Assembly (NCBI RefSeq): GCF_003334765.1
Contig: NZ_QOWT01000005.1
Origin: Escherichia coli
GTDB taxonomy: Bacteria; Pseudomonadota; Gammaproteobacteria; Enterobacterales; Enterobacteriaceae
Reading direction: 5' to 3' (one strand)
Length of the DNA stretch: 64,000 nucleotides
Part shown: piece by piece, positions 7,385 through 58,228 of the stretch
Layout of the letters: each line of letters opens with the position of its first letter
Numbering within the stretch: position 1 is the first letter of the stretch
Made by a program: the position numbers and the translations under genes
Notes under the pieces: model-generated
Told to the model about the DNA's origin: nothing
The model's database searches: none
The model's input: the letters and a program-made list of their open reading frames with translations, nothing else

Positions 7385-8077
7385 CTAGTGATAACCACGC
7401 GCGGTCATAAAATCCGTAATCGCTTTTTCTGCATCAATCAGCACCTTTTCCAGTGGCTGATTAGCATCGATATCAACCAGTTGTGCACCACCAAAGGTTA
7501 ACTGTGGCGTTATGGCTATCTTTCTTGCCAGCGATTCCCTTTTGTGGTCAGGCTTACGCGCGCAGGCCACGTCTAGATCGACATTGAGTTTGATGACCAG
7601 ATCAGGTTTATGGCTCGCCATCCAGTGAAACGCTTTACGTTCCTGGCTTGCCAGCCATGAGACAAAACGACCACCTTCAATGTTAGGTGGGAACACTGTA
7701 CCATCGTAAGCGCCAGGAATTTGGTCCTGAGGATAACGGTCGGTTAGAACAATTAACCCGCGACGACGACAGGCAAGCATATGACGAAAGCGCAGTAAGC
7801 GACGGGCGACAAACGCTGTAATTACCAGCGCCGGAACAGGGCCAGGCAATTTTTTTGCTGTTTTCACCTGATTTCGTTCAATTGTTTTATGTAAGGATTT
7901 TCCCATGAACGGTAATTTTGTCACTGCACGACCGACATTTCCGGCCTGTTTTCCTAAATGAACTCTTTCGGCAGCACCATATTTTTCGACAACGGTAATG
8001 AGATGTTCACACACCGTTGACTTGCCTGAACCATCGCTACCAATAACGGCAATTAATGGAGGTGTTATTGACTGCAT
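7385..8077 (-). CDS. yghT: P-loop NTPase/kinase-like protein (230 aa), paralogue 1
   Basis: Walker [10 protein letters not shown], plus DRYPQ and ARKPDH motifs shared with the next two genes. Position matches yghT. Confidence 0.85.
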
Positions 8078-8250: not shown

Positions 8251-8964
8251 GTGAATCAACGTAATATGTCAATAATTAATTCCACGCCAGTGCGTGTTAT
8301 TGCCATTGTAGGATGTGATGGTTCAGGTAAATCGACCCTCACGGCAAGCCTGGTAAATGAACTGGCAGCAACAATGCCAACAGAACACATTTATCTCGGG
8401 CAATCGTCCGGGCGAATTGGCGAATGGATTTCACAGCTCCCTGTTATTGGCGCACCTTTTGGGCGTTATCTGCGAAGTAAAGCGGCACATGTGCACGAAA
8501 AGCCCTCCACACCGCCTGGCAATATGACTGCGCTGGTTATCTATCTGCTTTCCTGCTGGCGGGCGTACAAGTTTCACAAAATGTTGTGTAAAAACCAGCA
8601 AGGCTATCTGCTCATCACCGACCGCTACCCGCAGGTTGAAGTGCCGGGTTTCCGCTTTGATGGCCCGCAATTGGCAAAAACCACGGGCGGTAACGGTTGG
8701 ATAAAAATGTTAAGGCAGCGCGAGCTGAAGCTGTACCAATGGATGGCGTCTTATTTGCCCGTATTGTTGATTCGTCTTGGCATTGATGAACAAACCGCGT
8801 TTGCGCGTAAACCTGACCACCAACTGGCAGCGTTACAGGAAAAAATCGCCGTTACGCCGCAACTGACATTCAATGGCGCAAAGATCCTTGAACTGGATGG
8901 TCGGCAACCAGCCGATGAAATTCTGCAAGCGTCACTACGCGCAATTCACGCTGCGCTTTCCTGA
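8251..8964 (+). CDS. yghS: P-loop NTPase/kinase-like protein (237 aa), paralogue 2
   Basis: GTG start. Contains GCDGSGKST, DRYPQ and ARKPDH motifs. Confidence 0.85.
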   Translation: MNQRNMSIINSTPVRVIAIVGCDGSGKSTLTASLVNELAATMPTEHIYLGQSSGRIGEWISQLPVIGAPFGRYLRSKAAHVHEKPSTPPGNMTALVIYLLSCWRAYKFHKMLCKNQQGYLLITDRYPQVEVPGFRFDGPQLAKTTGGNGWIKMLRQRELKLYQWMASYLPVLLIRLGIDEQTAFARKPDHQLAALQEKIAVTPQLTFNGAKILELDGRQPADEILQASLRAIHAALS

Positions 8965-8995: not shown

Positions 8996-9754
8996 ATGGA
9001 CGCACTACAAACACAAACTGTTAATAGTACAACCGCGCCGCAGCCCAACTACATTCCGGGGCTGATTGCGGTGGTCGGGTGTGATGGCACCGGTAAATCC
9101 ACACTGACCAATGACCTGGTGAAATCGCTGCAACAACACTGGCAAACCGAGCGGCGCTATCTGGGGCTGCTCTCCGGCGAAGACGGCGACAAAATCAAAC
9201 GATTGCCGTTGGTTGGTGTCTGGCTCGAACGGCGACTGGCGGCCAAATCCTCGAAAACCCAAAGCATGAAAACCAAATCTCCGGCGCTATGGGCGGCGGT
9301 GATTATGTACTGCTTCTCGCTGCGAAGAATGGCGAATCTACGCAAGGTTCAGCGACTGGCGCAAAGTGGCGTTCTGGTGGTCAGCGATCGCTTCCCGCAG
9401 GCTGAAATTTCGGGCTTTTATTATGACGGACCGGGGATCGGCGTCGAACGTGCGACCGGGAAAATCAGCATGTTTCTGGCGCAGCGCGAACGGCGTTTAT
9501 ACCAAAAAATGGCGCAATACCGTCCTGAATTAATTATTCGTTTGGGGATTGATATTGATACTGCCATCTCCCGCAAGCCTGACCATGACTATGCCGAGCT
9601 GCAGGACAAAATCGGCGTCATGTCGACGATTGGCTATAACGGCACAAAAATTCTTGAGATTGATTCCAGAGCGCCCTACAGCGAAGTGCTGGAACAGGCA
9701 CAGAAGGCGGTTTCTCTGGTTGCCATCGTTTCTGACCGCCGAAGTTTAACTTAA
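8996..9754 (+). CDS. yghR: P-loop NTPase/kinase-like protein (252 aa), paralogue 3
   Basis: Contains GCDGTGKST, DRFPQ and SRKPDH motifs. Lies 31 nt after yghS. Confidence 0.85.
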   Translation: MDALQTQTVNSTTAPQPNYIPGLIAVVGCDGTGKSTLTNDLVKSLQQHWQTERRYLGLLSGEDGDKIKRLPLVGVWLERRLAAKSSKTQSMKTKSPALWAAVIMYCFSLRRMANLRKVQRLAQSGVLVVSDRFPQAEISGFYYDGPGIGVERATGKISMFLAQRERRLYQKMAQYRPELIIRLGIDIDTAISRKPDHDYAELQDKIGVMSTIGYNGTKILEIDSRAPYSEVLEQAQKAVSLVAIVSDRRSLT

Positions 9755-9799: not shown

Positions 9800-11149
9800 T
9801 TGGCGGGTTTTAACATCAAACATTGGTTTGCAGATGGCGCGTTTCGCACCATTATTCGCAATAGCGCCTGGTTAGGCTCCAGTAATGTCGTGAGCGCTTT
9901 ACTGGGTCTGTTGGCGCTCTCGTGTGCCGGTAAAGGGATGACGCCCGCCATGTTTGGCGTACTGGTGATTGTACAATCGTACGCCAAGTCGATCAGCGAT
10001 TTTATTAAGTTTCAGGCATGGCAGCTGGTGGTTCAGTACGGAACACCAGCATTAACCAACAATAATCCGCAGCAATTCCGCAATGTCGTCTCATTTTCCT
10101 TCTCGCTGGATATCGTCAGCGGCGCGGTGGCGATTGTCGGCGGCATTGCCTTACTCCCTTTTCTTTCCCATTCATTAGGTCTGGATGACCAAAGCTTTTG
10201 GCTGGCAGCGCTGTATTGCACGCTCATTCCTTCAATGGCTTCCTCCACGCCGACCGGCATTCTGCGTGCGGTAGATCGCTTCGATCTAATTGCTGTACAG
10301 CAAGCGACGAAACCTTTTCTGCGCGCAGCGGGGAGCGTCGTAGCCTGGTATTTTGACTTTGGTTTTGCGGGTTTTGTTATTGCCTGGTACGTGTCGAATC
10401 TGGTTGGCGGCACCATGTACTGGTGGTTTGCCGCGCGCGAATTACGCCGCAGAAATATCCATAACGCCTTCAAATTGAATCTGTTTGAGTCTGCCCGACA
10501 CATTAAAGGCGCGTGGAGTTTTGTCTGGTCAACCAACATTGCCCACTCCATCTGGTCGGCGCGTAACTCGTGCAGCACAGTGCTGGTGGGGATCGTGTTA
10601 GGACCCGCTGCCGCCGGGTTATTTAAAATCGCCATGACATTCTTCGACGCCGCCGGAACGCCAGCGGGTTTACTGGGCAAAAGTTTTTACCCAGAGGTGA
10701 TGCGTTTAGATCCGCGCACCACCAGACCGTGGTTGTTAGGCGTGAAGTCAGGTTTACTGGCGGGCGGAATCGGTATTCTGGTGGCGCTCGCGGTGTTGAT
10801 CGTCGGCAAGCCGCTTATTTCGCTGGTGTTTGGCGTTAAGTATCTCGAAGCGTATGACCTGATTCAGGTGATGCTGGGCGCAATTGTGATTTCGATGCTG
10901 GGCTTCCCACAGGAGTCATTGCTATTGATGGCGGGAAAACAGCGCGCTTTTCTCGTGGCGCAAACCATCGCCTCAATCGGCTACATCGTATTGCTGTTCA
11001 TGTTCTGTCATCTGTTTGGCGTGCTGGGAGCAGCGTTTGCTTATTTCGGTGGGCAATGTCTGGATGTGGTGCTCTCGTTAATTCCGACCTTAAAGGCATT
11101 TTTTCAGCGCCATTCCTTGCTTTATAACGCAGCCGGAGAGAAATCCTGA
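9800..11149 (+). CDS. yghQ: MOP-superfamily (Wzx/MurJ-like) polytopic membrane flippase, full length (449 aa with TTG start; start uncertain)
   Basis: Highly hydrophobic multi-TM protein. Position after yghR matches yghQ. It is longer than the K-12 product as I recall it. Confidence 0.75.
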   Translation: MAGFNIKHWFADGAFRTIIRNSAWLGSSNVVSALLGLLALSCAGKGMTPAMFGVLVIVQSYAKSISDFIKFQAWQLVVQYGTPALTNNNPQQFRNVVSFSFSLDIVSGAVAIVGGIALLPFLSHSLGLDDQSFWLAALYCTLIPSMASSTPTGILRAVDRFDLIAVQQATKPFLRAAGSVVAWYFDFGFAGFVIAWYVSNLVGGTMYWWFAARELRRRNIHNAFKLNLFESARHIKGAWSFVWSTNIAHSIWSARNSCSTVLVGIVLGPAAAGLFKIAMTFFDAAGTPAGLLGKSFYPEVMRLDPRTTRPWLLGVKSGLLAGGIGILVALAVLIVGKPLISLVFGVKYLEAYDLIQVMLGAIVISMLGFPQESLLLMAGKQRAFLVAQTIASIGYIVLLFMFCHLFGVLGAAFAYFGGQCLDVVLSLIPTLKAFFQRHSLLYNAAGEKS

Positions 11150-11973
11150 TGATGAGAAAATATTTCCCGCTTGAGGCGAGCGAGCGTCTATTTGTTGCAG
11201 TTGAAGAAGATGATGTCGTTGATGCACAGGTCAGTTTGCCGCCGACTATCGCACTAAGTTGTACCACCGAAATCATCCATGATAATTACGCGTTATGCCT
11301 GCAATTCTGGCTCAATGGCGTCAATCGCCAGGAGTTACTGCGTTTAATATGCAAACAGGCCAAAGGCGATGAGTTGACTGCTGATGAGCGCAAACAATTT
11401 AAATACATGCGAGCGCGCTACAAGCACCTGCGTTTTGCGCAACGGCTGTATTTAAAGAAGCATCAGGCCGGATTTTTATTCGGCAAAACGACCGTTTTTT
11501 TGGGGCGTTTTCAGGACGGTTTTCGTAACGGTAAGAAAAATATTGTGTCGTATTACGGCAACTTGTTACGGGTTTATTTAAGCTCTCCGGTCTGGTCGTT
11601 GGTGAACTATTCATTACGCCATAGCCAGTTAGAAAGCGTAAGCGGTTTTATTGCCTATCGGCAAAAGCAAATGCATACCCTGAAAGAGATAATTGCCAAA
11701 CCGCGACTAACCGGCAGGGAATTTCATGATGTGCGAAAAATCATCAGCCAGCAGGTTTCTTATTACGACACCTTAAGATCGCTTGATCCTGAAAATAAAG
11801 AGGCGTTACAGATTTCCCGCTTCCTCGCCGCCATTAATGGCCTGATGGGGGATAAACACGACGACATGGTGGCGGATGATATGGAAAACCGCCAGTCGTA
11901 TGATGCACCGGTGGCGCTGGATAGCGATATTCGCCAGCGCTTAGAGCTGCTGATTTCGCGTTTTCCGCTATAA
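11149..11973 (+). CDS. hypothetical soluble protein (274 aa), no recognisable family
   Basis: The ATG overlaps the yghQ stop (TGATG), suggesting translational coupling. Codon usage looks typical. I recognise no motifs. Confidence 0.6.
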   Translation: MMRKYFPLEASERLFVAVEEDDVVDAQVSLPPTIALSCTTEIIHDNYALCLQFWLNGVNRQELLRLICKQAKGDELTADERKQFKYMRARYKHLRFAQRLYLKKHQAGFLFGKTTVFLGRFQDGFRNGKKNIVSYYGNLLRVYLSSPVWSLVNYSLRHSQLESVSGFIAYRQKQMHTLKEIIAKPRLTGREFHDVRKIISQQVSYYDTLRSLDPENKEALQISRFLAAINGLMGDKHDDMVADDMENRQSYDAPVALDSDIRQRLELLISRFPL

Positions 11974-11981
11974 CCGGAGCA

Positions 11982-12545
11982 ATGATGTCATCTCGTTTGA
12001 TTATTGCGCTGATTATCATGCTCTTAGCCCAGGGTGTGCAGGCACACAATTTCGTCACTGGCAAAACGGTTACCCCCGTTTATATCCAGGAAGGCGGCGA
12101 GCTGCTTCTGAATAGCGACGACGAAATTCACTACCAAAAGTGGAACAGCACACAGCTGGCGGGAAAAGTCCGCATTATCCAGTATATCGCCGGGCGTAAG
12201 TCGGCGAAGAAAAAGAACTCACTGTTAATTAAAGCGGTTGAAGCGGCAAACTTTCCGCAGGATCGTTTTCAGCCCACCACCATTGTGAACACCGATGATG
12301 CCATCTTTGGTACTGGCTATTTTGTCGTTGGCAAAATCGAAAAAAATAAACGCCGCTATCCGTGGGCGCAATTCGTTATTGACGGCAATGGACTGGGACG
12401 CGTTGCCTGGCGGTTGCCGGAGCAGAGTTCAACCATTCTGGTGCTGAATAAAGACGGGCAAATTCAGTGGGCAAAGGACGGCAGCCTGACGCCGGAAGAG
12501 GTAGATCATGTCATTGCGCTGGCGCAGAAACTGATCAATGAATAA
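11982..12545 (+). CDS. YtfJ-family periplasmic protein (187 aa) with signal peptide
   Basis: Signal peptide MMSSRLIIALIIMLLAQGVQA|HN. Long collinear similarity to E. coli YtfJ as I recall it (WNS.QL.GKVR..Q.IAGR.SAK, TTIVNTDDAI, DKDG..QWAKDG.LTPEEV). GGAG SD 5 nt upstream. Confidence 0.8.
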   Translation: MMSSRLIIALIIMLLAQGVQAHNFVTGKTVTPVYIQEGGELLLNSDDEIHYQKWNSTQLAGKVRIIQYIAGRKSAKKKNSLLIKAVEAANFPQDRFQPTTIVNTDDAIFGTGYFVVGKIEKNKRRYPWAQFVIDGNGLGRVAWRLPEQSSTILVLNKDGQIQWAKDGSLTPEEVDHVIALAQKLINE

Positions 12546-12575
12546 AAAATTCAAAGGATTGAGGGTGTTAGTGAG

Positions 12576-13646
12576 ATGAAGCTGGTTGAACACTACATCA
12601 TGCGTGGTACGCGCCGTCTGGTGCTGATTATCGTCGGTTTTCTGATCTTTATTTTCGCCAGCTACTCCGCACAGCGTTATCTGACCGAAGCGGCAAATGG
12701 GACCTTAGCTCTTGATGTTGTGCTGGATATCGTTTTCTACAAAGTGCTGATTGCACTGGAGATGTTGTTACCTGTTGGTCTGTATGTGTCAGTTGGCGTG
12801 ACGCTAGGGCAGATGTATACCGACTCGGAAATTACCGCTATCTCTGCGGCGGGGGGCAGTCCGGGACGCTTGTACAAAGCCGTTCTTTATCTGGCGATAC
12901 CGCTAAGTATTTTTGTCACCCTTCTGTCGATGTATGGTCGGCCGTGGGCTTATGCGCAGATTTATCAACTGGAGCAACAGTCGCAGTCGGAGCTGGATGT
13001 TCGCCAGTTGCGGGCAAAGAAATTTAACACTAACGATAACGGACGAATGATCCTTTCGCAGACGGTTGATCAGGATAATAATCGCCTGACTGACGCGCTG
13101 ATTTATACTTCTACTGCCAATCGAACCCGCATTTTCCGCGCCCGTTCGGTTGATGTGGTTGACCCATCACCTGAGAAACCGACCGTTATGTTGCATAACG
13201 GGACCGCCTATCTTCTCGATCATCAGGGGCGTGACGACAACGAACAGATCTACCGTAATCTGCAATTACATCTGAATCCGCTGGATCAAAGCCCTAACGT
13301 CAAACGCAAAGCAAAATCGGTCACGGAGCTGGCGCGCTCCGCCTTTCCTGCCGATCATGCCGAACTGCAATGGCGACAAAGCCGTGGCCTGACAGCATTG
13401 TTGATGGCGCTGCTGGCCATTTCATTAAGTCGGGTAAAACCGCGGCAAGGGCGATTTTCAACGTTATTGCCACTGACGTTGCTGTTTGTTGCCATTTTTT
13501 ATGGCGGCGACGTCTGCCGTACGCTGGTGGCTAACGGTGCGATTCCCCTCATTCCTGGTTTGTGGTTAGTACCCGGACTCATGCTAATGGGCCTGCTGAT
13601 GCTGGTCGCACGCGACTTCTCTTTGCTGCAGAAATTTTCCCGATGA
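12576..13646 (+). CDS. LptF-like permease (YjgP/YjgQ family, 356 aa)
   Basis: Collinear with E. coli LptF: LGQMYTDSEITAISAAG vs LGKLYTESEITVMHACG, and AELQWRQS...SLSRVKPRQGRFSTLLP vs AELNWRIT...PLSVVNPRQGRVLSMLP. Confidence 0.85.
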   Translation: MKLVEHYIMRGTRRLVLIIVGFLIFIFASYSAQRYLTEAANGTLALDVVLDIVFYKVLIALEMLLPVGLYVSVGVTLGQMYTDSEITAISAAGGSPGRLYKAVLYLAIPLSIFVTLLSMYGRPWAYAQIYQLEQQSQSELDVRQLRAKKFNTNDNGRMILSQTVDQDNNRLTDALIYTSTANRTRIFRARSVDVVDPSPEKPTVMLHNGTAYLLDHQGRDDNEQIYRNLQLHLNPLDQSPNVKRKAKSVTELARSAFPADHAELQWRQSRGLTALLMALLAISLSRVKPRQGRFSTLLPLTLLFVAIFYGGDVCRTLVANGAIPLIPGLWLVPGLMLMGLLMLVARDFSLLQKFSR

Positions 13647-14722
13647 ATGTTTTCAGTCGCTATTTAATCCGTCATCTCTTTCTCGGTTTTGCCGCCGCCG
13701 CAGGGCTATTGCTGCCGCTTTTTACCACCTTCAACCTGATTAACGAACTGGATGATGTCAGCCCGGGCGGTTATCGCTGGACTCAGGCGGTGCTGGTGGT
13801 GCTGATGACCTTACCGCGTACACTGGTCGAACTTTCGCCGTTTATCGCATTATTGGGAGGGATTGTTGGCCTGGGGCAGTTATCGAAAAACAGTGAGCTT
13901 ACCGCCATTCGCAGCACTGGGTTTTCTATCTTCCGTATTGCACTGGTGGCGCTGGTTGCCGGGATATTGTGGACTGTTTCGTTAGGCGCGATAGATGAGT
14001 GGGTGGCGTCGCCATTGCAGCAACAGGCGCTGCAAATCAAATCGACTGCCACCGCGTTGGGGGAGGACGATGACATTACCGGCAATATGCTTTGGGCCAG
14101 GCGCGGTAATGAATTTGTGACGGTGAAATCGCTGAACGAGCAGGGCCAGCCTGTGGGCGTGGAGATATTTCATTATCGCGACGATCTCTCGCTCGAATCC
14201 TACATTTTTGCACGCAGTGCCTCCATTGAAGACGACAAAACGTGGATCCTGCATGGTGTGAATCATAAAAAATGGTTGAATGGCAAAGAAACGCTGGAAA
14301 CATCAGATAATCTTGCCTGGCAATCGGCCTTCACCAGTATGGATCTTGAAGAGTTATCGATGCCGGGGAATACTTTTTCTGTCCGTCAGCTTAATCATTA
14401 CATCCATTATTTGCAGGAAACCGGACAACCCAGCAGCGAATACCGCCTTGCACTGTGGGAAAAACTGGGGCAACCGATCCTGACCCTGGCGATGATTTTG
14501 CTGGCTGTGCCGTTCACCTTTAGCGCCCCGCGCTCGCCAGGGATGGGTAGCCGTCTCGCTGTAGGCGTCATCGTTGGCTTACTCACCTGGATCAGCTATC
14601 AAATCATGGTCAATCTGGGGTTGCTATTTGCGTTGAGTGCACCTGTTACCGCGCTCGGTTTACCGGTAGCGTTTGTGCTGATGGCGTTGAGCCTGGTGTA
14701 TTGGTATGACAGACAACATTAA
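13643..14722 (+). CDS. LptG-like permease (YjgP/YjgQ family, 359 aa)
   Basis: ATGA overlap with the preceding gene. KNSELTAIRSTGFS resembles the LptG coupling-helix QRSELVVMQASGF. The ORF-track upstream extension is rejected. Confidence 0.85.
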   Translation: MNVFSRYLIRHLFLGFAAAAGLLLPLFTTFNLINELDDVSPGGYRWTQAVLVVLMTLPRTLVELSPFIALLGGIVGLGQLSKNSELTAIRSTGFSIFRIALVALVAGILWTVSLGAIDEWVASPLQQQALQIKSTATALGEDDDITGNMLWARRGNEFVTVKSLNEQGQPVGVEIFHYRDDLSLESYIFARSASIEDDKTWILHGVNHKKWLNGKETLETSDNLAWQSAFTSMDLEELSMPGNTFSVRQLNHYIHYLQETGQPSSEYRLALWEKLGQPILTLAMILLAVPFTFSAPRSPGMGSRLAVGVIVGLLTWISYQIMVNLGLLFALSAPVTALGLPVAFVLMALSLVYWYDRQH

Positions 14723-14723
14723 A

Positions 14724-14750
14724 CCCGCCGTGGCGCAACACCACGGCGGG
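14724..14750. terminator. bidirectional terminator hairpin between convergent operons
   Basis: Perfect 10-bp GC stem cccgccgtgg / ccacggcggg with a 7-nt loop, placed exactly between the stops at 14722 (+) and 14757 (-). Confidence 0.75.
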
Positions 14751-14756
14751 CTCACA

Positions 14757-15929
14757 TTACTGCTTCAGAGTAGCAAATGCCTGAATGATGGCATCGATTT
14801 GCTCATGACTGTGGGCAGCGTTTACGCTACAGCGCAGCAGAGTGATGCCTGCAGGCGCGGCAGGTGGCAGGATAAGATTCACATAAACGCCCAGCGAAAT
14901 AAGCTCGCGCCAGATGCGTAAACCGTCCTCTTTCGAACCGATTATTACCGGCACTACCGGGCTAATATGTGAACTTAACTCATAACCCAGTTTTTGCAGA
15001 CCGTCATACAGATGGTTGGCGTTATCCATCAGCTTTTGCCGCAGCTCTGGTTGTGAGGCAATGGTTCTTAACGACGAGCGCACGGTCGCAATGCAGGACG
15101 GAGAAGGAGAGGCGGTAAAAATATACGGGCGGCTGCCGTAGCGCAACACTTCCATCGCTTCCGAACCGACAGCAAAACCGCCAATCGAGGCCAGACTTTT
15201 ACTGAAAGTACCAACGATAATATCCACATCATCTTCAACGCCAACGGCTTCAGCCAGTCCGCGCCCCGTTGCGCCTAACACGCCAAACGAATGCGCTTCA
15301 TCGACAATCAAATAACCACCGAGACGACGTTTGATATCAACAATTTCCGCTAACGGCGCAACGTCACCGAGCATGCTGTAGATGCCCTCAACGATGATAA
15401 TCGCCTCTTTCGCCCGTTCACCGAGGCGAACCATGCGCCGTTCCAGATCTTTAGCATCGTTATGGCGGAAACGAATAATTTCCGCGCCACCGAGAGAACA
15501 GGCGTCATAAATACTGGCGTGGCTGTCGGCATCCAGTAACACCACGGCGTTATGGTCGGCAAGTGCGCTGATGACGCCTAAATTAGCGGTATAACCGGTT
15601 GAAAAAACGATAGCGGTAGGGCGATTGAAAAACTCGGCAATCTCTTTCTCTAACGCCAGGTGCGGCGCATAACTGCCGTTTGCCATACGAGAACCGGTGG
15701 TGCCGGTGCCTTGGGCCGCTAACGCTGCCTGACCTTCGGCGATGGCATCATGATTAAAGGTTAAACCGAGATAATTATTGGTCCCGGCCAGAATCACTTT
15801 TTTATTGCCGATCCGACCTTCGGTGGCGGAATACACTTCATCAATACAGGTGCCAAACGGTGTTAACCCGTTGTCACTAAATTGCAGTCGCTCGCCAGCA
15901 AGGCGCGCATATTTATCGTATAGCCCCAT
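14757..15929 (-). CDS. PLP-dependent alpha-oxoamine synthase, serine-palmitoyltransferase-like (390 aa)
   Basis: VDEAHSFGVLGATGRG and GTFSKSLASIGGF (PLP lysine) are hallmark AOS-family strings. As I recall them, they are closest to bacterial Spt. Confidence 0.85.
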   Translation of the reverse strand: MGLYDKYARLAGERLQFSDNGLTPFGTCIDEVYSATEGRIGNKKVILAGTNNYLGLTFNHDAIAEGQAALAAQGTGTTGSRMANGSYAPHLALEKEIAEFFNRPTAIVFSTGYTANLGVISALADHNAVVLLDADSHASIYDACSLGGAEIIRFRHNDAKDLERRMVRLGERAKEAIIIVEGIYSMLGDVAPLAEIVDIKRRLGGYLIVDEAHSFGVLGATGRGLAEAVGVEDDVDIIVGTFSKSLASIGGFAVGSEAMEVLRYGSRPYIFTASPSPSCIATVRSSLRTIASQPELRQKLMDNANHLYDGLQKLGYELSSHISPVVPVIIGSKEDGLRIWRELISLGVYVNLILPPAAPAGITLLRCSVNAAHSHEQIDAIIQAFATLKQ

Positions 15930-16177
15930 TATTTATTCTCCAGCCATGGAAGTAGAGTTTCCATTAATTGCGCAGGGGTTTTGACATCCAGCAGAATATT
16001 AATAGGAATGGAAATATCGAATCTGTCTTCCAGCATCATTAAGAGATCCATCACTTTGATCGACTCCAGGCCAAGATCGTTGACGAGATCGCTGTCGGGC
16101 TTAATTTCCACACCGTTTTCGACCAAATCCTGTAAACAGGAAAGGATGTAATCCATTACTATTTCACGATTTACCAT
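15929..16177 (-). CDS. acyl carrier protein (82 aa)
   Basis: DLGLESIKVMDLLMMLEDRF is a phosphopantetheine-attachment motif. Its stop overlaps the downstream start (TAATG). Confidence 0.85.
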   Translation of the reverse strand: MVNREIVMDYILSCLQDLVENGVEIKPDSDLVNDLGLESIKVMDLLMMLEDRFDISIPINILLDVKTPAQLMETLLPWLENK

Positions 16178-16208
16178 AGAAACGTTAACACACCTTTAAA
16201 CAAGACAA

Positions 16209-17123
16209 TCAAAATAGCCCGTTGCGTAATGCGTGTTCCAGGCTAATCCCGGGAAACCAATTAATATCTTCAGAAATACGGTTATTACTTGCCGACCAGT
16301 CGGCATGGGTTAATTCACGGATTTTCGAACGAGTCAGCATCGGTTCTTTACCCGCCAGACGGCTCAACGCGGTACTGATATCCGCAAGGCAGGTGAGTAG
16401 CGGCAGAGGAATACCGACCATCCGCACGGAACCACAGCGGACATCGGCAACAAGCTGTTGGACACGTTGCCAGTCATAGCCTCCGGCGACGCCATCGCAT
16501 AATTCATAGGTTTGCGTCTGTACAGTTTCGGCGCTTAACCACTGACCCACTGCTTGCGCAAAATCGGTGACGTGCAGGAAAGAGAGCTGTGTCTCTGGCG
16601 TGCCAAGTCGTGGCAGCAGACCGCGCAGCATCCAGTCAAACAGCGGTTTTAACTCTTTATCGCCGGGACCATACACGGCTGTCGGGCGAAAAACGCCCAA
16701 CGTAATTTCGTCAGCCATTGCAGTCAGCCGTTGTTCGGCGACGTGTTTGGAATTTGCGTACCAGGAGAGTTCGGGATGGCGCGCCGCCAGCGAAGAGATA
16801 AACAGAAAACGTTGGCAAAAGCCGCTCTCTTTTGCCGTTTGCATCAGGCGCAGGCTGCCGTCAACGTTGCAGCGGGTAAAAATCTCTTCTTTGTGCCCGC
16901 GCACTTGCCCGGCGCAATGGACCACCGCGCTGGCTCCGGTAACCAGTTCGCTAAGCGAATGTGTATCTTCCAGCGAACCGCGCACCCAAGTGAGATTATC
17001 ATTGACGTGAGCGCGGGCAGTACGCGTCAATGCGCGAACGTGAAAGCCGCGGGCGAGCAGGTTATCAATAATATATTTACCGATAAACCCGGTAGCGCCC
17101 GTCACCGCGACAGTTTGATTCAT
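16209..17123 (-). CDS. NAD(P)-dependent epimerase/dehydratase-family (extended SDR) reductase (304 aa)
   Basis: Rossmann motif VTGATGFIGKYI and catalytic YANSK (YxxxK). Confidence 0.85.
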   Translation of the reverse strand: MNQTVAVTGATGFIGKYIIDNLLARGFHVRALTRTARAHVNDNLTWVRGSLEDTHSLSELVTGASAVVHCAGQVRGHKEEIFTRCNVDGSLRLMQTAKESGFCQRFLFISSLAARHPELSWYANSKHVAEQRLTAMADEITLGVFRPTAVYGPGDKELKPLFDWMLRGLLPRLGTPETQLSFLHVTDFAQAVGQWLSAETVQTQTYELCDGVAGGYDWQRVQQLVADVRCGSVRMVGIPLPLLTCLADISTALSRLAGKEPMLTRSKIRELTHADWSASNNRISEDINWFPGISLEHALRNGLF

Positions 17124-18844
17124 GCCAGGGACTCCTGCACATGAAGACTGGCAGCATAAGCCTTCTGATAACGTTTTTTCGCTTCCGCACGGGCAGGCTT
17201 GCCGGAGGATGTTCGGGGAATACTGTGGGGCGGCAACAGATCGATATCCGCGGTAACGCCAAATTCGCTTTGGATCCGTGCTGCCAGCGCGTGGATAAGC
17301 TGCCCGCGACGTTCTTCATCGCTGATCCGACACTGGATCTGCAAAATGATTTTTTCTTGGGCGGTAACAAAAGCAATCGCATCGCCAGAATGAATTTCCG
17401 GTTCCTGTTCCGCAATATATTCAATATCCTGCGGCCAGATATTACGGCCACGAATAATAATCAGATCTTTAATGCGTCCGGTGACATACAGATAACCGTC
17501 CAGCAGATAACCGAGGTCGCCGGTGTCTAACCAGCCCGTCGCGGCAATCTCGTCTTGTGAAATCTGGTCGCCAAAGTAACCGCTCATCAGGCTAGGGCCG
17601 GAGATGCAAATATGGCCTACCACACGTTCCGCGACAGGTATACCTGCTTCATTGCGGATTTCAATGCCATGTTCCGGCAACGCTTTACCGCAGTTGACGA
17701 AAGTCGATACGGCGCGTGTTTCAGCATCCGGCGCGACGGCTTTGCCCTGATATTCGAGGATGTCGCGATCCACTTCGTTAACCACAACCCCGGAAGCTTC
17801 ATCAGAGAAGCTGACAGCCAGCGCATTTTCTGCCAGTCCGTAGCACGGCATGAAAGTTTTATCGTCAAAGTTGACCTGACGGAAACATTCAGCGAATTGA
17901 TGGAGTTGTTCTGCGGAGATGGGTTCTGCACCAATACCAGCGACGCGCCAGCAGGAAAGATCCAGTTCAGCGAGATCTTTTTCATTCACGCGGCGCTGGC
18001 ACAATTCATAGCCAAACGGCGGCGCAACGGAAACGGTGCCGCGATTTTTACTGATCAATTTAAGCCATTGCAGAGGACGCATGGCAAAATCCTGAGTGCG
18101 CAAATAATCTACTGAGAGTTGCGTGGCGACGGGGGTCAGGAGAAAGCCGACCAGTCCCATATCATGGTAGAAAGGCAGCCAGGAGACGCAGCGGTCGCCA
18201 GGGCGTAATTTTATGCCATCGTGGCTTATAGCACGTAGATTAGCCATCACTTCGCGATGGGTGATAATGACGCCACGGGGAAAACGGGTGCTGCCGGAGG
18301 TGTACTGGAGGTAGGCGATATCGTTCGGAACTGGACGCTGGAGCGCAACATCGGCTTCCGGTAATGCCTTAAACCAGGCGTGGCTTAAAACATGTAATTC
18401 GGGGTTGTTGTTATGCGTCGCGGCATTGACCAGTGGCAACCACTCATCACCAGTGATAATGGCTGCGGGCTGGCAACTTGCCAGTAAACCCTGCAGCTTG
18501 CCGCTCCAGGAATCCCGCTGACCGACGCCCATGGGAATCGCCAACGGGACGGCGACTAAGCCGGCATACTGGCAGGCAAAAAAAGCCTCTACGAACCCGC
18601 TACTGGTTTCGGCAATCAGTGCCACGCGATCGCCTTTTTTCAGGTTTAGCGATAACAACCGCTTCGCACCAGCTTCGGCACGCGCTTTTAACGTCTGATA
18701 TTCCAGTTGATCTTCAAGTTGGCAACGTCTGTCATAAAAATTCATTCCAGCGCTACTCAGAGCGGCATAGTCCAAAGCATCAACCAGCGTTGGAAAATCG
18801 GCATAGCGCATAGGTAGGGAATGCGTAAAGATTTTATTAGACAT
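17120..18844 (-). CDS. fatty acyl-AMP ligase / acyl-ACP synthetase-type adenylating enzyme (574 aa from ATG 18844; TTG alternative at 18871)
   Basis: AMP-binding core LQYTSGSTRFPRGV and GRIKDLIIIRGRNIWPQDIE. ATGA overlap with the SDR gene. Confidence 0.85.
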   Translation of the reverse strand: MSNKIFTHSLPMRYADFPTLVDALDYAALSSAGMNFYDRRCQLEDQLEYQTLKARAEAGAKRLLSLNLKKGDRVALIAETSSGFVEAFFACQYAGLVAVPLAIPMGVGQRDSWSGKLQGLLASCQPAAIITGDEWLPLVNAATHNNNPELHVLSHAWFKALPEADVALQRPVPNDIAYLQYTSGSTRFPRGVIITHREVMANLRAISHDGIKLRPGDRCVSWLPFYHDMGLVGFLLTPVATQLSVDYLRTQDFAMRPLQWLKLISKNRGTVSVAPPFGYELCQRRVNEKDLAELDLSCWRVAGIGAEPISAEQLHQFAECFRQVNFDDKTFMPCYGLAENALAVSFSDEASGVVVNEVDRDILEYQGKAVAPDAETRAVSTFVNCGKALPEHGIEIRNEAGIPVAERVVGHICISGPSLMSGYFGDQISQDEIAATGWLDTGDLGYLLDGYLYVTGRIKDLIIIRGRNIWPQDIEYIAEQEPEIHSGDAIAFVTAQEKIILQIQCRISDEERRGQLIHALAARIQSEFGVTADIDLLPPHSIPRTSSGKPARAEAKKRYQKAYAASLHVQESLA

Positions 18845-19214
18845 ATACACCACGAAAAAATTGGATATCAAAAATAAAATGACAATAATGCGGTGGATTA
18901 TATAGGCATAAAAGATAAATGAGATAGTATTTTCATCAGTGTGAAAATGAACATTGATTTAAATAATGAATTTGAGTTTTTTGTTTTTATTGTGAATGAT
19001 ATTTAATTTATGAATATATTAAGAAGGAGCCTTGTCCGGTCGCCTTAAATCGACAAAAGGCATTGTGGCGCTTCTGTGTAGTCTCTGACCTTATCGTAAT
19101 CATTAATAAATACTATTTATTCGTCGTTTGTATTCATTGGGTTGATTATTAAGGTGCCGTTCGTTGCTGTTGCAACCTGTTTGTCACCGTTAATTATTTG
19201 TTACCCACAGAACT
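18845..19214. promoter_or_regulatory. AT-rich divergent promoter region (lipid operon / yghO)
   Basis: 370-bp strongly AT-rich spacer between divergent starts. No sites were mapped. Confidence 0.4.
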
Positions 19215-40901: not shown

Positions 40902-42124
40902 TGGCACTGTTTTACTATCAGGCGCTGGAGCGTAATGGTCGCAAAACCAAAGGCATGATTGAGGCGGATTCCGCGCGTCATGCCCGCCAGTTGTTGCGTG
41001 GTAAAGAGCTTATCCCCGTGCACATTGAAGCCCGGCTGAATGCTTCGACTGGGGGAATGTTGCAGCGTCGGCGGCATGCACATCGTCGCGTGGTGGCGGC
41101 AGATTTGGCGCTGTTCACACGCCAACTGGCAACGCTGGTGCAGGCAGCAATGCCGCTGGAAACCTGCTTACAGGCGGTCAGTGAGCAAAGTGAAAAACTG
41201 CATGTAAAAAGCCTCGGAATGGCGCTGCGCAGCCGGATTCAGGAAGGTTATACCCTGTCGGACAGCCTGCGCGAACATCCCCGCGTCTTTGACTCCCTGT
41301 TTTGTTCGATGGTCGCTGCCGGAGAAAAATCCGGACATCTCGACGTGGTGCTCAATCGCCTGGCGGATTACACCGAACAGCGGCAGCGTCTGAAATCACG
41401 CCTGCTGCAGGCCATGCTCTACCCGCTGGTACTGCTGGTGGTGGCAACGGGCGTGGTCACTATTTTGCTGACGGCAGTAGTGCCGAAAATTATCGAACAG
41501 TTTGATCATCTCGGACACGCGCTGCCTGCCTCCACCCGAATGCTCATCGCCATGAGCGACATGTTACAGACCAGCGGCGTGTACTGGCTGGCGGGTTTGC
41601 TGGGGCTTCTGGTGCTGGGGCAACGGCTACTCAAAAATCCTGCGATGCGCCTGCGCTGGGATAAAACCTTGCTGCGTTTGCCCGTGACGGGGCGTGTTGC
41701 GCGCGGACTGAATACGGCGCGTTTTTCCCGCACATTAAGCATCCTCACCGCCAGCAGTGTTCCGCTGCTGGAAGGTATTCAGACCGCCGCCGCCGTGTCG
41801 GCAAATCGTTATGTCGAGCAACAACTGCTGCTGGCGGCAGATCGCGTCCGCGAAGGAAGCAGCCTGCGCGCCGCGCTGGCGGATCTGCGCCTGTTCCCGC
41901 CGATGATGCTGTACATGATCGCCTCCGGCGAACAGAGCGGCGAACTGGAAACCATGCTTGAGCAGGCCGCAGTCAACCAGGAACGGGAATTTGATACCCA
42001 GGTGGGGCTGGCGTTAGGGCTGTTTGAACCGGCGCTGGTGGTGATGATGGCGGGCGTGGTGCTGTTTATCGTCATCGCCATCCTCGAGCCGATGCTGCAA
42101 CTGAACAATATGGTTGGAATGTAA
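40901..42124 (+). CDS. gspF: T2SS inner-membrane platform protein (407 aa)
   Basis: GspF-type duplicated domains. The start overlaps the gspE stop. Confidence 0.93.
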   Translation: MALFYYQALERNGRKTKGMIEADSARHARQLLRGKELIPVHIEARLNASTGGMLQRRRHAHRRVVAADLALFTRQLATLVQAAMPLETCLQAVSEQSEKLHVKSLGMALRSRIQEGYTLSDSLREHPRVFDSLFCSMVAAGEKSGHLDVVLNRLADYTEQRQRLKSRLLQAMLYPLVLLVVATGVVTILLTAVVPKIIEQFDHLGHALPASTRMLIAMSDMLQTSGVYWLAGLLGLLVLGQRLLKNPAMRLRWDKTLLRLPVTGRVARGLNTARFSRTLSILTASSVPLLEGIQTAAAVSANRYVEQQLLLAADRVREGSSLRAALADLRLFPPMMLYMIASGEQSGELETMLEQAAVNQEREFDTQVGLALGLFEPALVVMMAGVVLFIVIAILEPMLQLNNMVGM

Positions 42125-42140
42125 TTTACGGAGTTATCAC

Positions 42141-42596
42141 ATGAATTCGTTATCCCGCACACAAAAACCACGGGCAGGTTTTACCCTGCTGGAAGTGATG
42201 GTGGTGATTGTTATTCTTGGCGTCCTGGCAAGTCTGGTGGTGCCTAACCTGTTGGGCAACAAAGAGAAAGCCGATCGGCAAAAAGCCATCAGCGATATCG
42301 TGGCGCTGGAGAATGCGCTGGATATGTACCGACTGGATAACGGGCGTTATCCGACTACCGAACAGGGGCTGGAGGCGCTGATCCAGCAACCGGCCAATAT
42401 GGCGGATTCCCGTAACTACCGTACCGGTGGATACATTAAACGACTGCCAAAGGATCCGTGGGGCAATGATTATCAGTATCTCAGCCCGGGTGAAAAAGGG
42501 CTGTTTGATGTTTATACCCTGGGAGCAGATGGTCAGGAAAACGGGGAGGGCGCTGGCGCAGATATCGGTAACTGGAATTTGCAGGAGTTTCAGTAA
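42141..42596 (+). CDS. gspG: T2SS major pseudopilin (151 aa)
   Basis: Prepilin leader plus GFTLLEVMVVIVILGVLA. The ORF-track start at 42114 is rejected. Confidence 0.93.
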   Translation: MNSLSRTQKPRAGFTLLEVMVVIVILGVLASLVVPNLLGNKEKADRQKAISDIVALENALDMYRLDNGRYPTTEQGLEALIQQPANMADSRNYRTGGYIKRLPKDPWGNDYQYLSPGEKGLFDVYTLGADGQENGEGAGADIGNWNLQEFQ

Positions 42597-42599
42597 TCA

Positions 42600-43163
42600 G
42601 TGCCTGAACGCGGATTCACACTTCTGGAAATCATGCTGGTGATTTTCCTTATCGGCCTTGCCAGTGCGGGCGTGGTGCAGACTTTTGCGACAGATTCTGA
42701 ACCGCCTGCGAAAAAAGCAGCGCAGGATTTTCTGACTCGCTTTGCGCAGTTTAAGGACAGGGCAGTGATCGAAGGGCAAACACTCGGTGTGCTAATCGAC
42801 CCGCCTGGCTATCAGTTTATGCAGCGTCGTCACGGGCAATGGTTGTCCGTTTCTGCGACCCGGTTATCGGCACAGGTTACGGTGCCGAAACAGGTGCAGA
42901 TGCTGTTACAACCCGGAAGTGATATGTGGCAGAAGGAATATGCGCTGGAGCTGCAGCGTCGTCGCCTGACGCTGCATGATATTGAACTGGAGCTGCAAAA
43001 AGAGGCGAAAAAGAAGACGCCGCAGATCCGTTTTTCGCCTTTTGAACCCGCCACGCCGTTTACGCTGCGTTTCTACTCAGCGGCGCAAAACGCATGTTGG
43101 GCGGTAAAACTGGCACACGATGGCACGTTATCCCTCAGTCAATGTGATGAGAGGATGCCATGA
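42600..43163 (+). CDS. gspH: T2SS minor pseudopilin GspH (187 aa, GTG start)
   Basis: GFTLLEIMLVIFLIGL prepilin N-terminus. Confidence 0.88.
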   Translation: MPERGFTLLEIMLVIFLIGLASAGVVQTFATDSEPPAKKAAQDFLTRFAQFKDRAVIEGQTLGVLIDPPGYQFMQRRHGQWLSVSATRLSAQVTVPKQVQMLLQPGSDMWQKEYALELQRRRLTLHDIELELQKEAKKKTPQIRFSPFEPATPFTLRFYSAAQNACWAVKLAHDGTLSLSQCDERMP

Positions 43164-43531
43164 AGCGCGGATTTACTTTGCTGGAAGTGATGCTTGCGCT
43201 GGCGATTTTTGCGCTGGCTGCCATGGCGGTGTTACAGATTGCCAGCGGTGCGCTGAGTAATCAGCACGTTCTTGAGGAGAAAACGGTAGCGGGCTGGGTA
43301 GCTGAAAACCAGACCGCGCTGCTCTATCTGATGACCCGCGAGCAGCGGGCGGTCAGCCACCAGGGCGAGAGCGATATGGCAGGAAGCCGCTGGTACTGGC
43401 GAACCACACCGCTGAGTACAGGCAACGCGCTGCTCCAGGCAGTGGATATTGAAGTCAGCCGTCACGAAGACTTTTCGTCGGTGATTCAGTCACGACGCGC
43501 CTGGTTTAGCGCCGTGGGAGGCCAACAGTGA
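43160..43531 (+). CDS. gspI: T2SS minor pseudopilin GspI (123 aa)
   Basis: GFTLLEVMLALAIFALAA. ATGA-type overlap with gspH. Confidence 0.88.
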   Translation: MKRGFTLLEVMLALAIFALAAMAVLQIASGALSNQHVLEEKTVAGWVAENQTALLYLMTREQRAVSHQGESDMAGSRWYWRTTPLSTGNALLQAVDIEVSRHEDFSSVIQSRRAWFSAVGGQQ

Positions 43532-44133
43532 GAAGGACTTGCGCTGGTTTCACGTTACTGGAAATGCTGGTGGCGATAGCCATTTTTGCCTCACTGGCAC
43601 TGATGGCGCAGCAGGTGACAAACGGCGTTACACGCGTGAATAGCGCCGTCGCCGGACACGATCAAAAACTAAACCTCATGCAGCAAACGATGAGTTTTTT
43701 GAACCACGATCTGACACAAATGATGCCGCGTCCGGTAAGAGGCGATCAGGGCCAGCGTGAACCAGCGTTACTGGCGGGCGCTGGCGTGCTGACGTCTGAG
43801 AGTGAAGGGATGCGTTTTGTACGTGGCGGCGTGGTTAATCCGTTGATGCGTCTGCCGCGCAGTAATCTGCTCACCGTCGGTTACCGCATTCATGGTGGTT
43901 ATCTCGAACGGTTAGCCTGGCCACTGACCGATGCGGCAGGCAGCGTGAAGCCAACAACGCAAAAATTAATCCCGGCAGATTCGCTCCGTTTGCAGTTCCA
44001 CGACGGCACGCGCTGGCAGGAGAGCTGGTCATCAGTGCAGGCGATTCCTGTGGCAGTACGCATAACCCTGCATTCGCCGCAATGGGGCGAAATTGAACGC
44101 ATCTGGTTGTTACGCGGGCCGCAATTATCATGA
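43528..44133 (+). CDS. gspJ: T2SS minor pseudopilin GspJ (201 aa, GTG start)
   Basis: GFTLLEMLVAIAIFASLA. Overlaps the gspI stop. Confidence 0.88.
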   Translation: MRRTCAGFTLLEMLVAIAIFASLALMAQQVTNGVTRVNSAVAGHDQKLNLMQQTMSFLNHDLTQMMPRPVRGDQGQREPALLAGAGVLTSESEGMRFVRGGVVNPLMRLPRSNLLTVGYRIHGGYLERLAWPLTDAAGSVKPTTQKLIPADSLRLQFHDGTRWQESWSSVQAIPVAVRITLHSPQWGEIERIWLLRGPQLS

Positions 44134-45110
44134 TGATCACCTTGCCACCAAAACGCGGAATGGCACTGGTCGTGGTGCTGGTATTGCTGGCGGTTATGAT
44201 GCTGGTGACCATCACGCTTTCCAGTCGGATGCAGCAGCAACTTGGGCGAACGCGCAGCCAGCAGGAGTACCAGCAGGCGCTGTGGTACAGCGCCAGTGCA
44301 GAAAGCCTGGCGCTGAGCGCGCTCAGTCTGAGCCTGAAAAATGAAAAGCGTGTGCATCTGGCACAACCGTGGGCTTCTGGCCCGCGTTTTTTCCCACTGC
44401 CGCAGGGGCAAATTGCCGTCACTCTGCGTGACGCACAGGCCTGCTTTAACCTGAATGCCCTCGCTCAGCCGACGACGGCGTCGCGTCCGCTCGCGGTACA
44501 ACAACTGATTGCCCTGATCTCGCGCCTTGATGTACCTGCTTATCGGGCCGAACTGATAGCCGAAAGCCTGTGGGAGTTTATTGACGAAGACCGCAGCGTG
44601 CAGACGCGTCTGGGGCGTGAAGACAGCGAGTATCTCGCCCGCTCGGTGCCGTTCTACGCCGCTAATCAACCGCTGGCGGATATCAGCGAGATGCGCGTGG
44701 TGCAGGGAATGGACGCCGGGCTTTATCAAAAACTGAAACCGTTGGTCTGTGCGCTGCCGATGGCCCGCCAGCAAATCAACATCAATACATTAGATGTCAC
44801 GCAAAGTGTGATTCTTGAGGCGCTGTTTGACCCGTGGTTAAGCCCTGTTCAGGCGCGGGCGTTATTACAACAACGTCCGGCGAAGGGCTGGGAAGATGTC
44901 GATCAGTTTCTTGCTCAGCCGCTACTTGCAGACGTCGATGAGCGTACTAAAAAACAGCTAAAAACCATCCTGAGCGTGGACAGCAATTACTTCTGGCTGC
45001 GTTCAGATATCACCGTGAATGAGATTGAACTGACGATGAATTCGTTAATTGTCCGCATGGGCCCACAACACTTTTCTGTTCTCTGGCATCAGACAGGAGA
45101 AAGTGAGTGA
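44130..45110 (+). CDS. gspK: T2SS minor pseudopilin GspK (326 aa)
   Basis: N-terminal TM RGMALVVVLVLLAVMMLV. Size and position match GspK. Confidence 0.88.
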   Translation: MMITLPPKRGMALVVVLVLLAVMMLVTITLSSRMQQQLGRTRSQQEYQQALWYSASAESLALSALSLSLKNEKRVHLAQPWASGPRFFPLPQGQIAVTLRDAQACFNLNALAQPTTASRPLAVQQLIALISRLDVPAYRAELIAESLWEFIDEDRSVQTRLGREDSEYLARSVPFYAANQPLADISEMRVVQGMDAGLYQKLKPLVCALPMARQQININTLDVTQSVILEALFDPWLSPVQARALLQQRPAKGWEDVDQFLAQPLLADVDERTKKQLKTILSVDSNYFWLRSDITVNEIELTMNSLIVRMGPQHFSVLWHQTGESE

Positions 45111-46285: not shown

Positions 46286-46286
46286 C

Positions 46287-46823
46287 ATGTTACGCGATAA
46301 ATTTATTCACTATTTTCAGCAATGGAGTGAACGCCAGTTAAGCCGTGGCGAACACTGGCTGACACAACACCTGGCGGGGCGTTCTCCGCGTGAAAAAGGC
46401 ATGTTACTGGCAGCGGCGGTGTTCCTGTTTAGCGCCGGATATTACGTCCTCATCTGGCAGCCGTTGAGCGAACGGATTGAGCAACAGGAGACGATGTTGC
46501 AGCAGCTGGTGGCGATGAACGCGCGACTGAAGAGTGCCGCGCCGGATATTATTGCGGCGCGAAAATCCGGCACGACAACGCCAGCACAGGTATCGCGGGT
46601 CATCAGCGACAGTGCTTCGGCGCATTCAGTGGTCATTAAGCGAATAGCCGAGCGCGGGGAGAATATTCAGGTCTGGATAGATCCGGTGGTGTTTAATGAC
46701 CTGCTGAACTGGTTAAAAGCACTGGATGAAAAATATGCGCTGCGAGTGACACAAATTGATGTCAGTGCTGCTGAGAAGCCTGGGATGGTGAATGTGCAGC
46801 GACTGGAATTTGGGCGGGGGTAG
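46287..46823 (+). CDS. gspM: T2SS inner-membrane protein GspM (178 aa)
   Basis: Single TM (MLLAAAVFLFSAGYYVLIW). Last gene of the gsp block. Confidence 0.88.
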   Translation: MLRDKFIHYFQQWSERQLSRGEHWLTQHLAGRSPREKGMLLAAAVFLFSAGYYVLIWQPLSERIEQQETMLQQLVAMNARLKSAAPDIIAARKSGTTTPAQVSRVISDSASAHSVVIKRIAERGENIQVWIDPVVFNDLLNWLKALDEKYALRVTQIDVSAAEKPGMVNVQRLEFGRG

Positions 46824-49330: not shown

Positions 49331-49516
49331 GCCATTACGTGAAGATATAATTTACACTCCCCAAGTTAATACATATAAGTAATTATATTAATAAATATTT
49401 ATAAAAGGCATCTAAAGAATAGATGCTTAGAGCCACTTAAACTGCTGTATTGTCTAAATGTAAGAAATAACGAAATGGGTTTTTGGTGATTACTGTACTC
49501 AAAAGGAGTCAAGAAT

Positions 49517-53026: not shown

Positions 53027-53034
53027 TATAATGT

Positions 53035-53062
53035 GAGTCGCACTATGGTGTGACTCTTTTTT
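53035..53062 (+). terminator. rho-independent terminator-like hairpin between the two region 2 genes
   Basis: gagtcgcac-tatg-gtgtgactc followed by tttttt, 9 nt after the stop at 53026. Confidence 0.6.
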
Positions 53063-53144
53063 ATATGTCAGTGATAGTTATTAATGAAATATTTAATGCG
53101 CGAAGGTGTACGATTTTTACAATATTTAGAGACTGGTGGGTCAA

Positions 53145-54134: not shown

Positions 54135-54211
54135 TTTTTATGTATACTTGTGTGAGGAATGAATAGCAATATATCTCAATATCTAAGAGCTGGTTTTTAT
54201 ATCGTTCATAG

Positions 54212-55420: not shown

Positions 55421-55454
55421 AAATAATTTGCGTAATAGTCAACTATGAAATTGT

Positions 55455-58219: not shown

Positions 58220-58228
58220 TTCAACTCC

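Follow-up and report, generated by a model that had tools for sequence, protein, structure and literature searches.

The LptF2–LptG2 permease pair encoded in a 64,000-nucleotide stretch of Escherichia coli DNA (RefSeq assembly GCF_003334765.1, contig NZ_QOWT01000005.1; this whole stretch is called the window below) is likely to act as the LptB-powered sphingolipid extractor encoded by an accessory sphingolipid locus that E. coli shares with other Enterobacterales, with the product of the upstream gene, YtfJ2, as an accessory. The open reading frames (ORFs) of ytfJ2, lptF2 and lptG2 lie exactly where a sequence-only reading, made earlier without database searches, had placed them (Table 1), including the 30-nt gap between ytfJ2 and lptF2 and the ATGA overlap of the lptF2 stop and lptG2 start codons. 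The suggestion in that reading of a second Lpt-like machine that handles a lipid other than lipopolysaccharide (LPS) and borrows LptB agrees, by analogy, with experiments on the Caulobacter crescentus LptF2/LptG2 pair. As the idea of a second Lpt extractor borrowing LptB has already been published for Caulobacter, the core finding is confirmatory; what is still new is specific to Enterobacterales and comprises YtfJ2, a CHAD-like protein and the kinase-like proteins YghR, YghS and YghT.

Both permeases belong to the LptF/LptG family, as had been proposed. The PF03739 (LptF_LptG) match covers the full model length in each, and the hidden Markov model scores (Table 1) exceed the curated cut-offs of 27.9 bits for PF03739, 230 bits for TIGR04407 (LptF) and 240 bits for TIGR04408 (LptG). 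The NCBIfam equivalog models resolve the two proteins as F-like and G-like, each scoring far lower on the other's model, and a sequence search of the PDB does the same, with LptF chains as the best matches of LptF2 and LptG chains as those of LptG2; Pseudomonas aeruginosa chains score at least as high as E. coli chains in this search. The Prokaryotic Genome Annotation Pipeline (PGAP) labels both proteins as LPS export permeases. Pairwise comparison (blastp) gives 29% identity between LptF2 and K-12 LptF and 28% between LptG2 and K-12 LptG. A longer ORF for lptG2 with a GTG start was rejected as spurious.

The coupling-helix glutamate contexts to which the sequence-only reading drew attention are real, falling at E85 in both proteins against E84 and E88 in K-12. 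In global alignments, YTDSEIT of LptF2 is paired with YTESEIT of K-12 LptF, and KNSELTAIRSTG of LptG2 with QRSELVVMQASG of K-12 LptG, the common context being SE(I/L)T. The coupling-helix region is the best 20-residue window in the alignment of LptF2 with LptF (12 of 20 residues identical, compared with ∼27% overall), and Lys82, Glu85, Leu86, Thr87, Ala88, Arg90, Gly93 and Ser95 of LptG2 are invariant in 23 orthologues. The hydropathy profiles of both proteins show three N-terminal and three C-terminal transmembrane segments and a hydrophilic insert of ∼170 residues, like those of K-12 LptF and LptG, and the Pfam match spans the insert. Replacement of Lys34, Lys40 and Lys41 of LptG, presumably LPS-binding residues, by Asn, Asp and Asp in LptG2 was considered as a mark of a non-LPS substrate and dropped, because they are missing from P. 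aeruginosa LptG as well. Within Escherichia, dN/dS is 0.04–0.08 for lptF2, 0.04–0.05 for lptG2 and 0.02–0.03 for the flippase gene yghQ of the same locus, values that indicate purifying selection and on which the three genes are taken to be functional. The pair shares with the E. coli LptB2FG(C) complex (PDB entries 6MHU and 6MI7) the PF03739 assignment, the six-segment hydropathy pattern with a presumably periplasmic insert, the coupling-helix glutamates, the F-then-G tandem order with a stop/start overlap and a genomic position unlinked from lptB. It differs in its sequence (28–29% identity), in being accessory (76% of genomes) rather than essential, in its linkage to ceramide genes and in its predicted sphingolipid substrate.

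All 5426 complete E. coli genomes surveyed carry housekeeping lptFG, and 4148 of them also carry the ytfJ2/lptF2/lptG2 trio; LptF2 and LptG2 are therefore an accessory second pair beside housekeeping LptFG. An 8-kb core of the locus is found at an identity of at least 95% in 4259 of the 5426 genomes. K-12 is among the ∼24% of genomes that lack the trio: in MG1655 (3,129,043–3,132,408) an IS5 element (insH9) separates yghO from a truncated yghQ (355 residues, compared with 449 in the window), and hyp274, ytfJ2, lptF2, lptG2, spt, acpR, cerR and aasR (compared with window positions 9800–20357) have therefore been lost there. BL21(DE3) keeps the genes that are deleted in K-12.

The trio lies within a sphingolipid locus. 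The window is E. coli chromosome with the gene order hyb–yghU–gss–pitB–yghT, yghS–yghR–yghQ–hyp274–ytfJ2–lptF2–lptG2, spt–acpR–cerR–aasR, yghO and glcC–glcD, in which lptG2 faces the spt–acpR–cerR–aasR genes convergently and yghO is nearby. No gap from yghS to lptG2 exceeds 45 nt and a strong hairpin separates lptG2 from spt, so that the trio appears to close a probable operon of seven genes starting at yghS. The hairpin is a terminator-like site with 16 pairs and an RNA fold of −21.9 kcal/mol (z = −4.4); it is probably a bidirectional terminator, with poor T tracts. A scan for σ70 promoters returned no more sites than in shuffled controls and was not used.

The linkage to the Spt operon, to which the convergent arrangement had pointed, is retained in every locus surveyed. 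A species-level genome scan with LptG2 yielded 24 loci from Escherichia, Shimwellia, Pluralibacter, Acerihabitans, Pseudocitrobacter, Erwinia, Citrobacter and Pantoea; mapping by tblastn places yghQ–hyp274–ytfJ2, lptF2–lptG2 and spt–acpR–cerR–aasR in each locus with enough contig, and yghO and yghT/S/R in most of the 24. The same gene set is present in Serratia, Sodalis and Klebsiella indica. Overall, a cluster of 13 genes is conserved in at least ten Enterobacterales genera, with intact reading frames and no dedicated ATPase gene, and occurs in three arrangements, in all of which the linkage to the sphingolipid genes holds. In Sodalis and Acerihabitans lptF2–lptG2 is inverted and separated from yghQ–hyp274–ytfJ2, and in Sodalis the yghRST homologues are found ∼9 kb from lptF2–lptG2 on the far side of the spt operon. 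Among the matches listed in a homology search with LptG2, only Enterobacterales sequences with at least 63% identity were found, and a metagenome scan with an LptG2 alignment listed 80 loci, all of them 97–100% E. coli-like.

Profile searches of the 64-kb window detect no ATP-binding cassette (ABC) ATPase gene in the sphingolipid locus, as the sequence-only reading had observed. The sole ABC_tran domain in the window (∼48635–49327) is that of a KpsT-like protein encoded 34 kb away, which pairs with a capsule ABC-2 permease, and tblastn searches with LptB and KpsT of the window and the 24 loci found no dedicated ATPase gene. No homologue of LptB, LptC or LptA was found in the surveyed sphingolipid loci. 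An ABC ATPase domain ∼7 kb from the Pseudocitrobacter loci was rejected as a partner: it is part of a fused C39-peptidase ABC exporter which, with HlyD and an outer-membrane factor, makes up a separate type I secretion system. However, the earlier description of the pair as an orphan without an ATPase is overstated. A missing adjacent ATPase gene is not unusual, because the essential lptFG genes of K-12 (4.486 Mb) are also unlinked from lptB (3.344 Mb), at a distance of ∼1.1 Mb. One full-length lptB gene per genome was found by blastn in the 5426 complete E. coli genomes, a weak test in that a paralogue as diverged as LptF2 and LptG2 would escape a search at the DNA level.

A closely similar system is known from Caulobacter, where the sphingolipid region contains second copies of LptC, LptF and LptG and a putative flippase (CC_1166, 'potential flippase') that were named as likely transport genes (PMC11324152). 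The Caulobacter lptF2, lptG2 and lptC2 genes tolerate deletion only in a Δspt or ΔcpgB strain, with sphingolipid or CPG2 synthesis abolished; LptF2 and LptG2 purify together, and each of them pulls down the only LptB (bioRxiv 10.64898/2026.04.12.717747). The same preprint places lptF2 and lptG2 in the sphingolipid loci of many alpha- and gammaproteobacteria, depicts the UTI89 locus of E. coli as homologous (Figure 2B) and finds lptC2 in Caulobacter only; it makes no mention of YtfJ. The Caulobacter pair (CCNA_01214/CCNA_01213; CC_1156/CC_1155) resembles that of the window in being a second pair within a sphingolipid locus with spt, acpR, cerR, aasR, a ceramide synthase gene and a putative flippase, in the lack of an ATPase gene in either locus and in the partnership with LptB, which is shown in Caulobacter and proposed for E. 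coli. The two loci differ in their head-group genes, in that the Caulobacter locus contains CpgABC, CC_1152/1153 and other genes where that of E. coli contains the YghR/S/T kinases, the CHAD-like protein and YtfJ2; furthermore, LptC2 is present in Caulobacter and lacking in E. coli, and the experimental support is that of Caulobacter. In Sphingomonas, which is LPS-free and rich in glycosphingolipids, the sole LptFG is likewise encoded beside an spt operon and is believed to carry sphingolipids along an Lpt pathway whose other components are all present (bioRxiv 10.64898/2026.04.12.717747). It differs in being the only LptFG in its genome, whereas the E. coli pair coexists with the LPS pair.

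Together these observations suggest the following pathway, in which the synthetic steps are established for close homologues. AasR would load a fatty acid onto AcpR, Spt would join the acyl-AcpR and serine, and the ceramide synthase YghO and CerR would complete dihydroceramide on the cytoplasmic side; Spt, AcpR and AasR of E. coli BL21 are enzymatically active and yghO is listed as the N-acyltransferase of the pathway (PMC9386255). The YghR/S/T kinases could then add a head group, and the MOP-type YghQ may flip the lipid across the inner membrane. A heterodimer of LptF2 and LptG2, docked through the coupling helices (E85 of each) onto a dimer of the single housekeeping LptB as in Caulobacter, would pull the lipid from the outer leaflet of the inner membrane. 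The lipid would probably pass through the periplasmic domains of LptF2 and LptG2 into the shared LptC/A/DE bridge and thus reach the outer membrane, with YtfJ2 as a putative periplasmic, redox-inactive accessory of thioredoxin fold.

YtfJ2 is, as had been recognized, a signal-peptide protein of the YtfJ family, its scores (Table 1) lying well above the cut-offs of 24 bits for PF09695 (YtfJ_HI0045) and 151.1 bits for TIGR01626. PGAP places its start one codon later, at 11985. A Sec signal peptide is present (hydrophobic residues 1–21, ending ..VQA|HNF), and the whole length of the protein aligns at 55% identity with housekeeping K-12 YtfJ (b4216; blastp), which also has a signal peptide. YtfJ2 is nevertheless a distinct paralogue confined to sphingolipid loci, whereas housekeeping ytfJ, present in 5418 of the 5426 E. 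coli genomes, stands alone between ytfI and ytfK with no Lpt gene linked to it. A sequence search of the PDB with YtfJ2 gave no significant match. A Foldseek search of the PDB with an AlphaFold2 model (predicted local distance difference test score 84.6) retrieved Etrx2, ResA, TlpA/DsbE and peroxiredoxin folds (1e-8 to 1e-6). YtfJ2 contains no cysteine, and no cysteine is invariant in 36 orthologues. In the model, an invariant basic loop, AGR-x-SAKKKN (Arg72, Lys76, Lys77 and Asn79), lies where thioredoxins have their active site. No similarity to K-12 LptC or LptA was detected by blastp, and the predicted fold is α/β thioredoxin-like rather than a β-jellyroll; on this model YtfJ2 is therefore not a bridge element of the LptC/LptA type.

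YghR, YghS and YghT are three paralogues of ∼230–250 residues with a Walker A motif, G-x-DG(S/T)GKST, and a DR[YF]PQ motif. Their best family signal is dTMP kinase (TIGR00041 and PF02223), below the cut-off in all cases. No ABC_tran match, LSGGQ-like signature or Q-loop was found in them, the weak matches being limited to the Walker A region, and a sequence search of the PDB with YghR gave no significant match. By sequence, they are candidate head-group kinases and poor candidates for a transporter energizer. The gene hyp274 always sits between yghQ and ytfJ2. The association of the kinase-like paralogues with a MOP flippase and YtfJ2 suggests a possible head-group module specific to Enterobacterales.

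Several other explanations of the locus were weighed. An unconventional energizer had been raised by the sequence-only reading; in this case one or more of the P-loop paralogues YghR/S/T would power the pair in place of LptB. These proteins contain Walker A motifs and are kept across the surveyed loci, and yghS and yghR are apparently co-transcribed with lptF2 and lptG2 in E. coli; however, they resemble dTMP kinases and lack the ABC signature, their Sodalis homologues lie beyond the spt operon, the most conserved part of LptF2 and LptG2 is the coupling helices on which an ABC ATPase docks, and the Caulobacter pair binds LptB, all of which makes this explanation extremely unlikely. A spare or specialized extractor of LPS, for example of modified LPS, with an incidental adjacency to spt, would account for the scores above the LptF and LptG equivalog cut-offs and for the PGAP names. 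It is hard to reconcile with the persistence of the spt–acpR–cerR–aasR linkage in all 24 loci and three further genera despite rearrangements, with an identity of only 28–29% to the housekeeping proteins of the same species, with the dispensability of a locus that about 24% of E. coli lack and that K-12 lost by an IS5-associated deletion, and with the dependence of lptF2/lptG2 essentiality on sphingolipid synthesis in Caulobacter, and it is given scarcely any credence. The loss of the locus from K-12 without obvious cost, its absence from roughly one in four complete genomes of E. coli and the failure to find a report of E. coli sphingolipids in the literature consulted could instead indicate a cryptic, essentially unexpressed remnant in which the pair has no current function; the strong purifying selection on yghQ, lptF2 and lptG2 (dN/dS 0.02–0.08), the intact reading frames in at least ten genera and the activity of the BL21 enzymes (PMC9386255) render this very improbable.

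The remaining alternative concerns YtfJ2, which could be a functional periplasmic partner of LptF2–LptG2 that replaces the Caulobacter-specific LptC2 in receiving or presenting the sphingolipid. In most loci only 30 nt separate the gene from lptF2 downstream, and it is kept in every locus through all three arrangements; its product is predicted to be periplasmic and carries the invariant basic loop at the thioredoxin active-site position, and no LptC or LptA homologue is found in the enterobacterial loci. Conversely, its predicted fold is of the thioredoxin/TlpA/peroxiredoxin type, whereas LptC, LptA, LptF and LptG hand over lipid through β-jellyrolls, and the 55%-identical housekeeping YtfJ of nearly all E. 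coli is unlinked to any Lpt gene. In Sodalis and Acerihabitans ytfJ2 stays with yghQ and hyp274 while lptF2–lptG2 is inverted away, so that its closest partners are yghQ and hyp274 and not lptF2. Of the coupling to YtfJ that had been claimed, shared membership of the operon and locus thus stands and a specific partnership with LptFG does not, and a direct replacement of LptC2 is considered unlikely. A broader proposal is that YghT/S/R, the divergent CHAD-fold protein, YghQ and YtfJ2 build and handle a phosphorylated sphingolipid head group unlike the CPG2 of Caulobacter, YtfJ2 being a periplasmic head-group-binding accessory that works with LptF2–LptG2 in place of the Caulobacter-only LptC2; it is offered as a tentative and rather doubtful possibility.

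The reading of LptF2–LptG2 as an LptB-powered sphingolipid extractor has to be set against a number of points. The functional data on LptF2 and LptG2 come from Caulobacter and not from E. coli, and orthology to the Caulobacter pair, as opposed to convergent duplication, rests on the figure and text of a preprint. In Caulobacter itself an interaction with LptC2 was not detected and the periplasmic and outer-membrane steps were left open (bioRxiv 10.64898/2026.04.12.717747). Because LptF2 and LptG2 are only 28–29% identical to E. coli LptF and LptG, it is a presumption that they can work with the LptB and LptC of E. coli. The roles suggested for YghQ, YghRST, hyp274 and YtfJ2 depend on guilt by association, and no literature report was found of sphingolipids extracted from E. 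coli cells.

Table 1. Features of the sphingolipid locus, with window coordinates.
Feature	Coordinates	Strand	Description
yghT	7385–8077	−	dTMP-kinase-like P-loop protein; third paralogue, divergently transcribed
yghS	8251–8964	+	Paralogous dTMP-kinase-like P-loop protein; probable first gene of the operon
yghR	8996–9754	+	dTMP-kinase-like P-loop protein; Walker A GCDGTGKST and DRFPQ
yghQ	9800–11149	+	Full-length (449 residues) MOP-family flippase; Polysacc_synt 1.3e-10; NCBIfam MOP flippase match; IS5-truncated in K-12
hyp274	11149–11973	+	Soluble all-helical protein, CHAD-like fold
ytfJ2	11982–12545	+	187 residues; periplasmic YtfJ-family protein; PF09695 1.6e-59, 200.6 bits; TIGR01626 216 bits
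lptF2	12576–13646	+	356 residues; LptF-type permease; PF03739 2.3e-54, 185 bits; TIGR04407 319.8 bits
lptG2	13643–14722	+	359 residues from ATG; LptG-type permease; PF03739 1.1e-68, 232 bits; TIGR04408 305.1 bits
Hairpin	14724–14750		GC-rich perfect 10-bp stem CCCGCCGTGG…CCACGGCGGG in the 34-nt lptG2/spt gap
spt	14757–15929	−	Serine palmitoyltransferase; Aminotran_1_2 1.2e-51; PGAP name 'spt'; BL21 Spt biochemistry in PMC9386255
acpR	15929–16177	−	Specialized acyl carrier protein; PP-binding 1.3e-13; PMC9386255
cerR/epi	16209–17123	−	Ceramide-pathway NAD-dependent reductase; Epimerase 5.9e-23; PMC9386255 (Fig. 9 legend, ECD_02852)
aasR	17120–18871	−	Acyl-AcpR synthetase; AMP-binding 1.7e-58; PGAP start shorter (17120–18844); PMC9386255
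yghO	19215–20357	+	N-acyltransferase (aca, bacterial ceramide synthase); PGAP name YghO; PMC9386255 (ECD_02850)

Some further genes were observed beside the locus in other genera. In a stretch of the Serratia liquefaciens locus (12844–15791), genes for a MipA-family outer-membrane protein, an unannotated protein of 266 residues and a PAP2 phosphatase lie immediately downstream of lptG2 and may be extra lipid-modifying members of the locus. In Sodalis sp. C49 a gene of the prokaryotic diacylglycerol-kinase family (PF01219; 18570–18929) lies between yghO and the yghR/yghS homologues.

Elsewhere in the window, the first 31 kb match strain B771 with 100% identity, and the region at ∼30364–46823, containing the gene for the lipoprotein metalloprotease SslE (YghJ) followed by pppA and the gspC–M type II secretion operon, is 97.9% identical to B771; this drop suggests a recombination boundary near 30–31 kb. 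A group-2-type capsule (kps) cluster occupies ∼47820–62168, with a KpsM-like ABC-2 permease (47820–48656), the KpsT-like ATPase (48653–49330) and a very AT-rich serotype-specific block at ∼49.5–54.1 kb (GC content 0.31–0.37) that is unlike B771, followed by conserved minus-strand genes.

About three quarters of complete E. coli genomes, including BL21(DE3) and uropathogenic strains and excluding K-12, thus carry a complete, selectively maintained kit for making and apparently exporting a sphingolipid. If it is expressed, most natural E. coli outer membranes could hold a class of lipid that K-12 cannot make. This would matter for resistance to polymyxin and detergents, for recognition by the host and for inhibitors of LptB, which would strike two export routes at once. 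Were YtfJ2 indeed a head-group accessory, it would give a first clue to what the YtfJ/HI0045 family does, the near-universal housekeeping YtfJ included.

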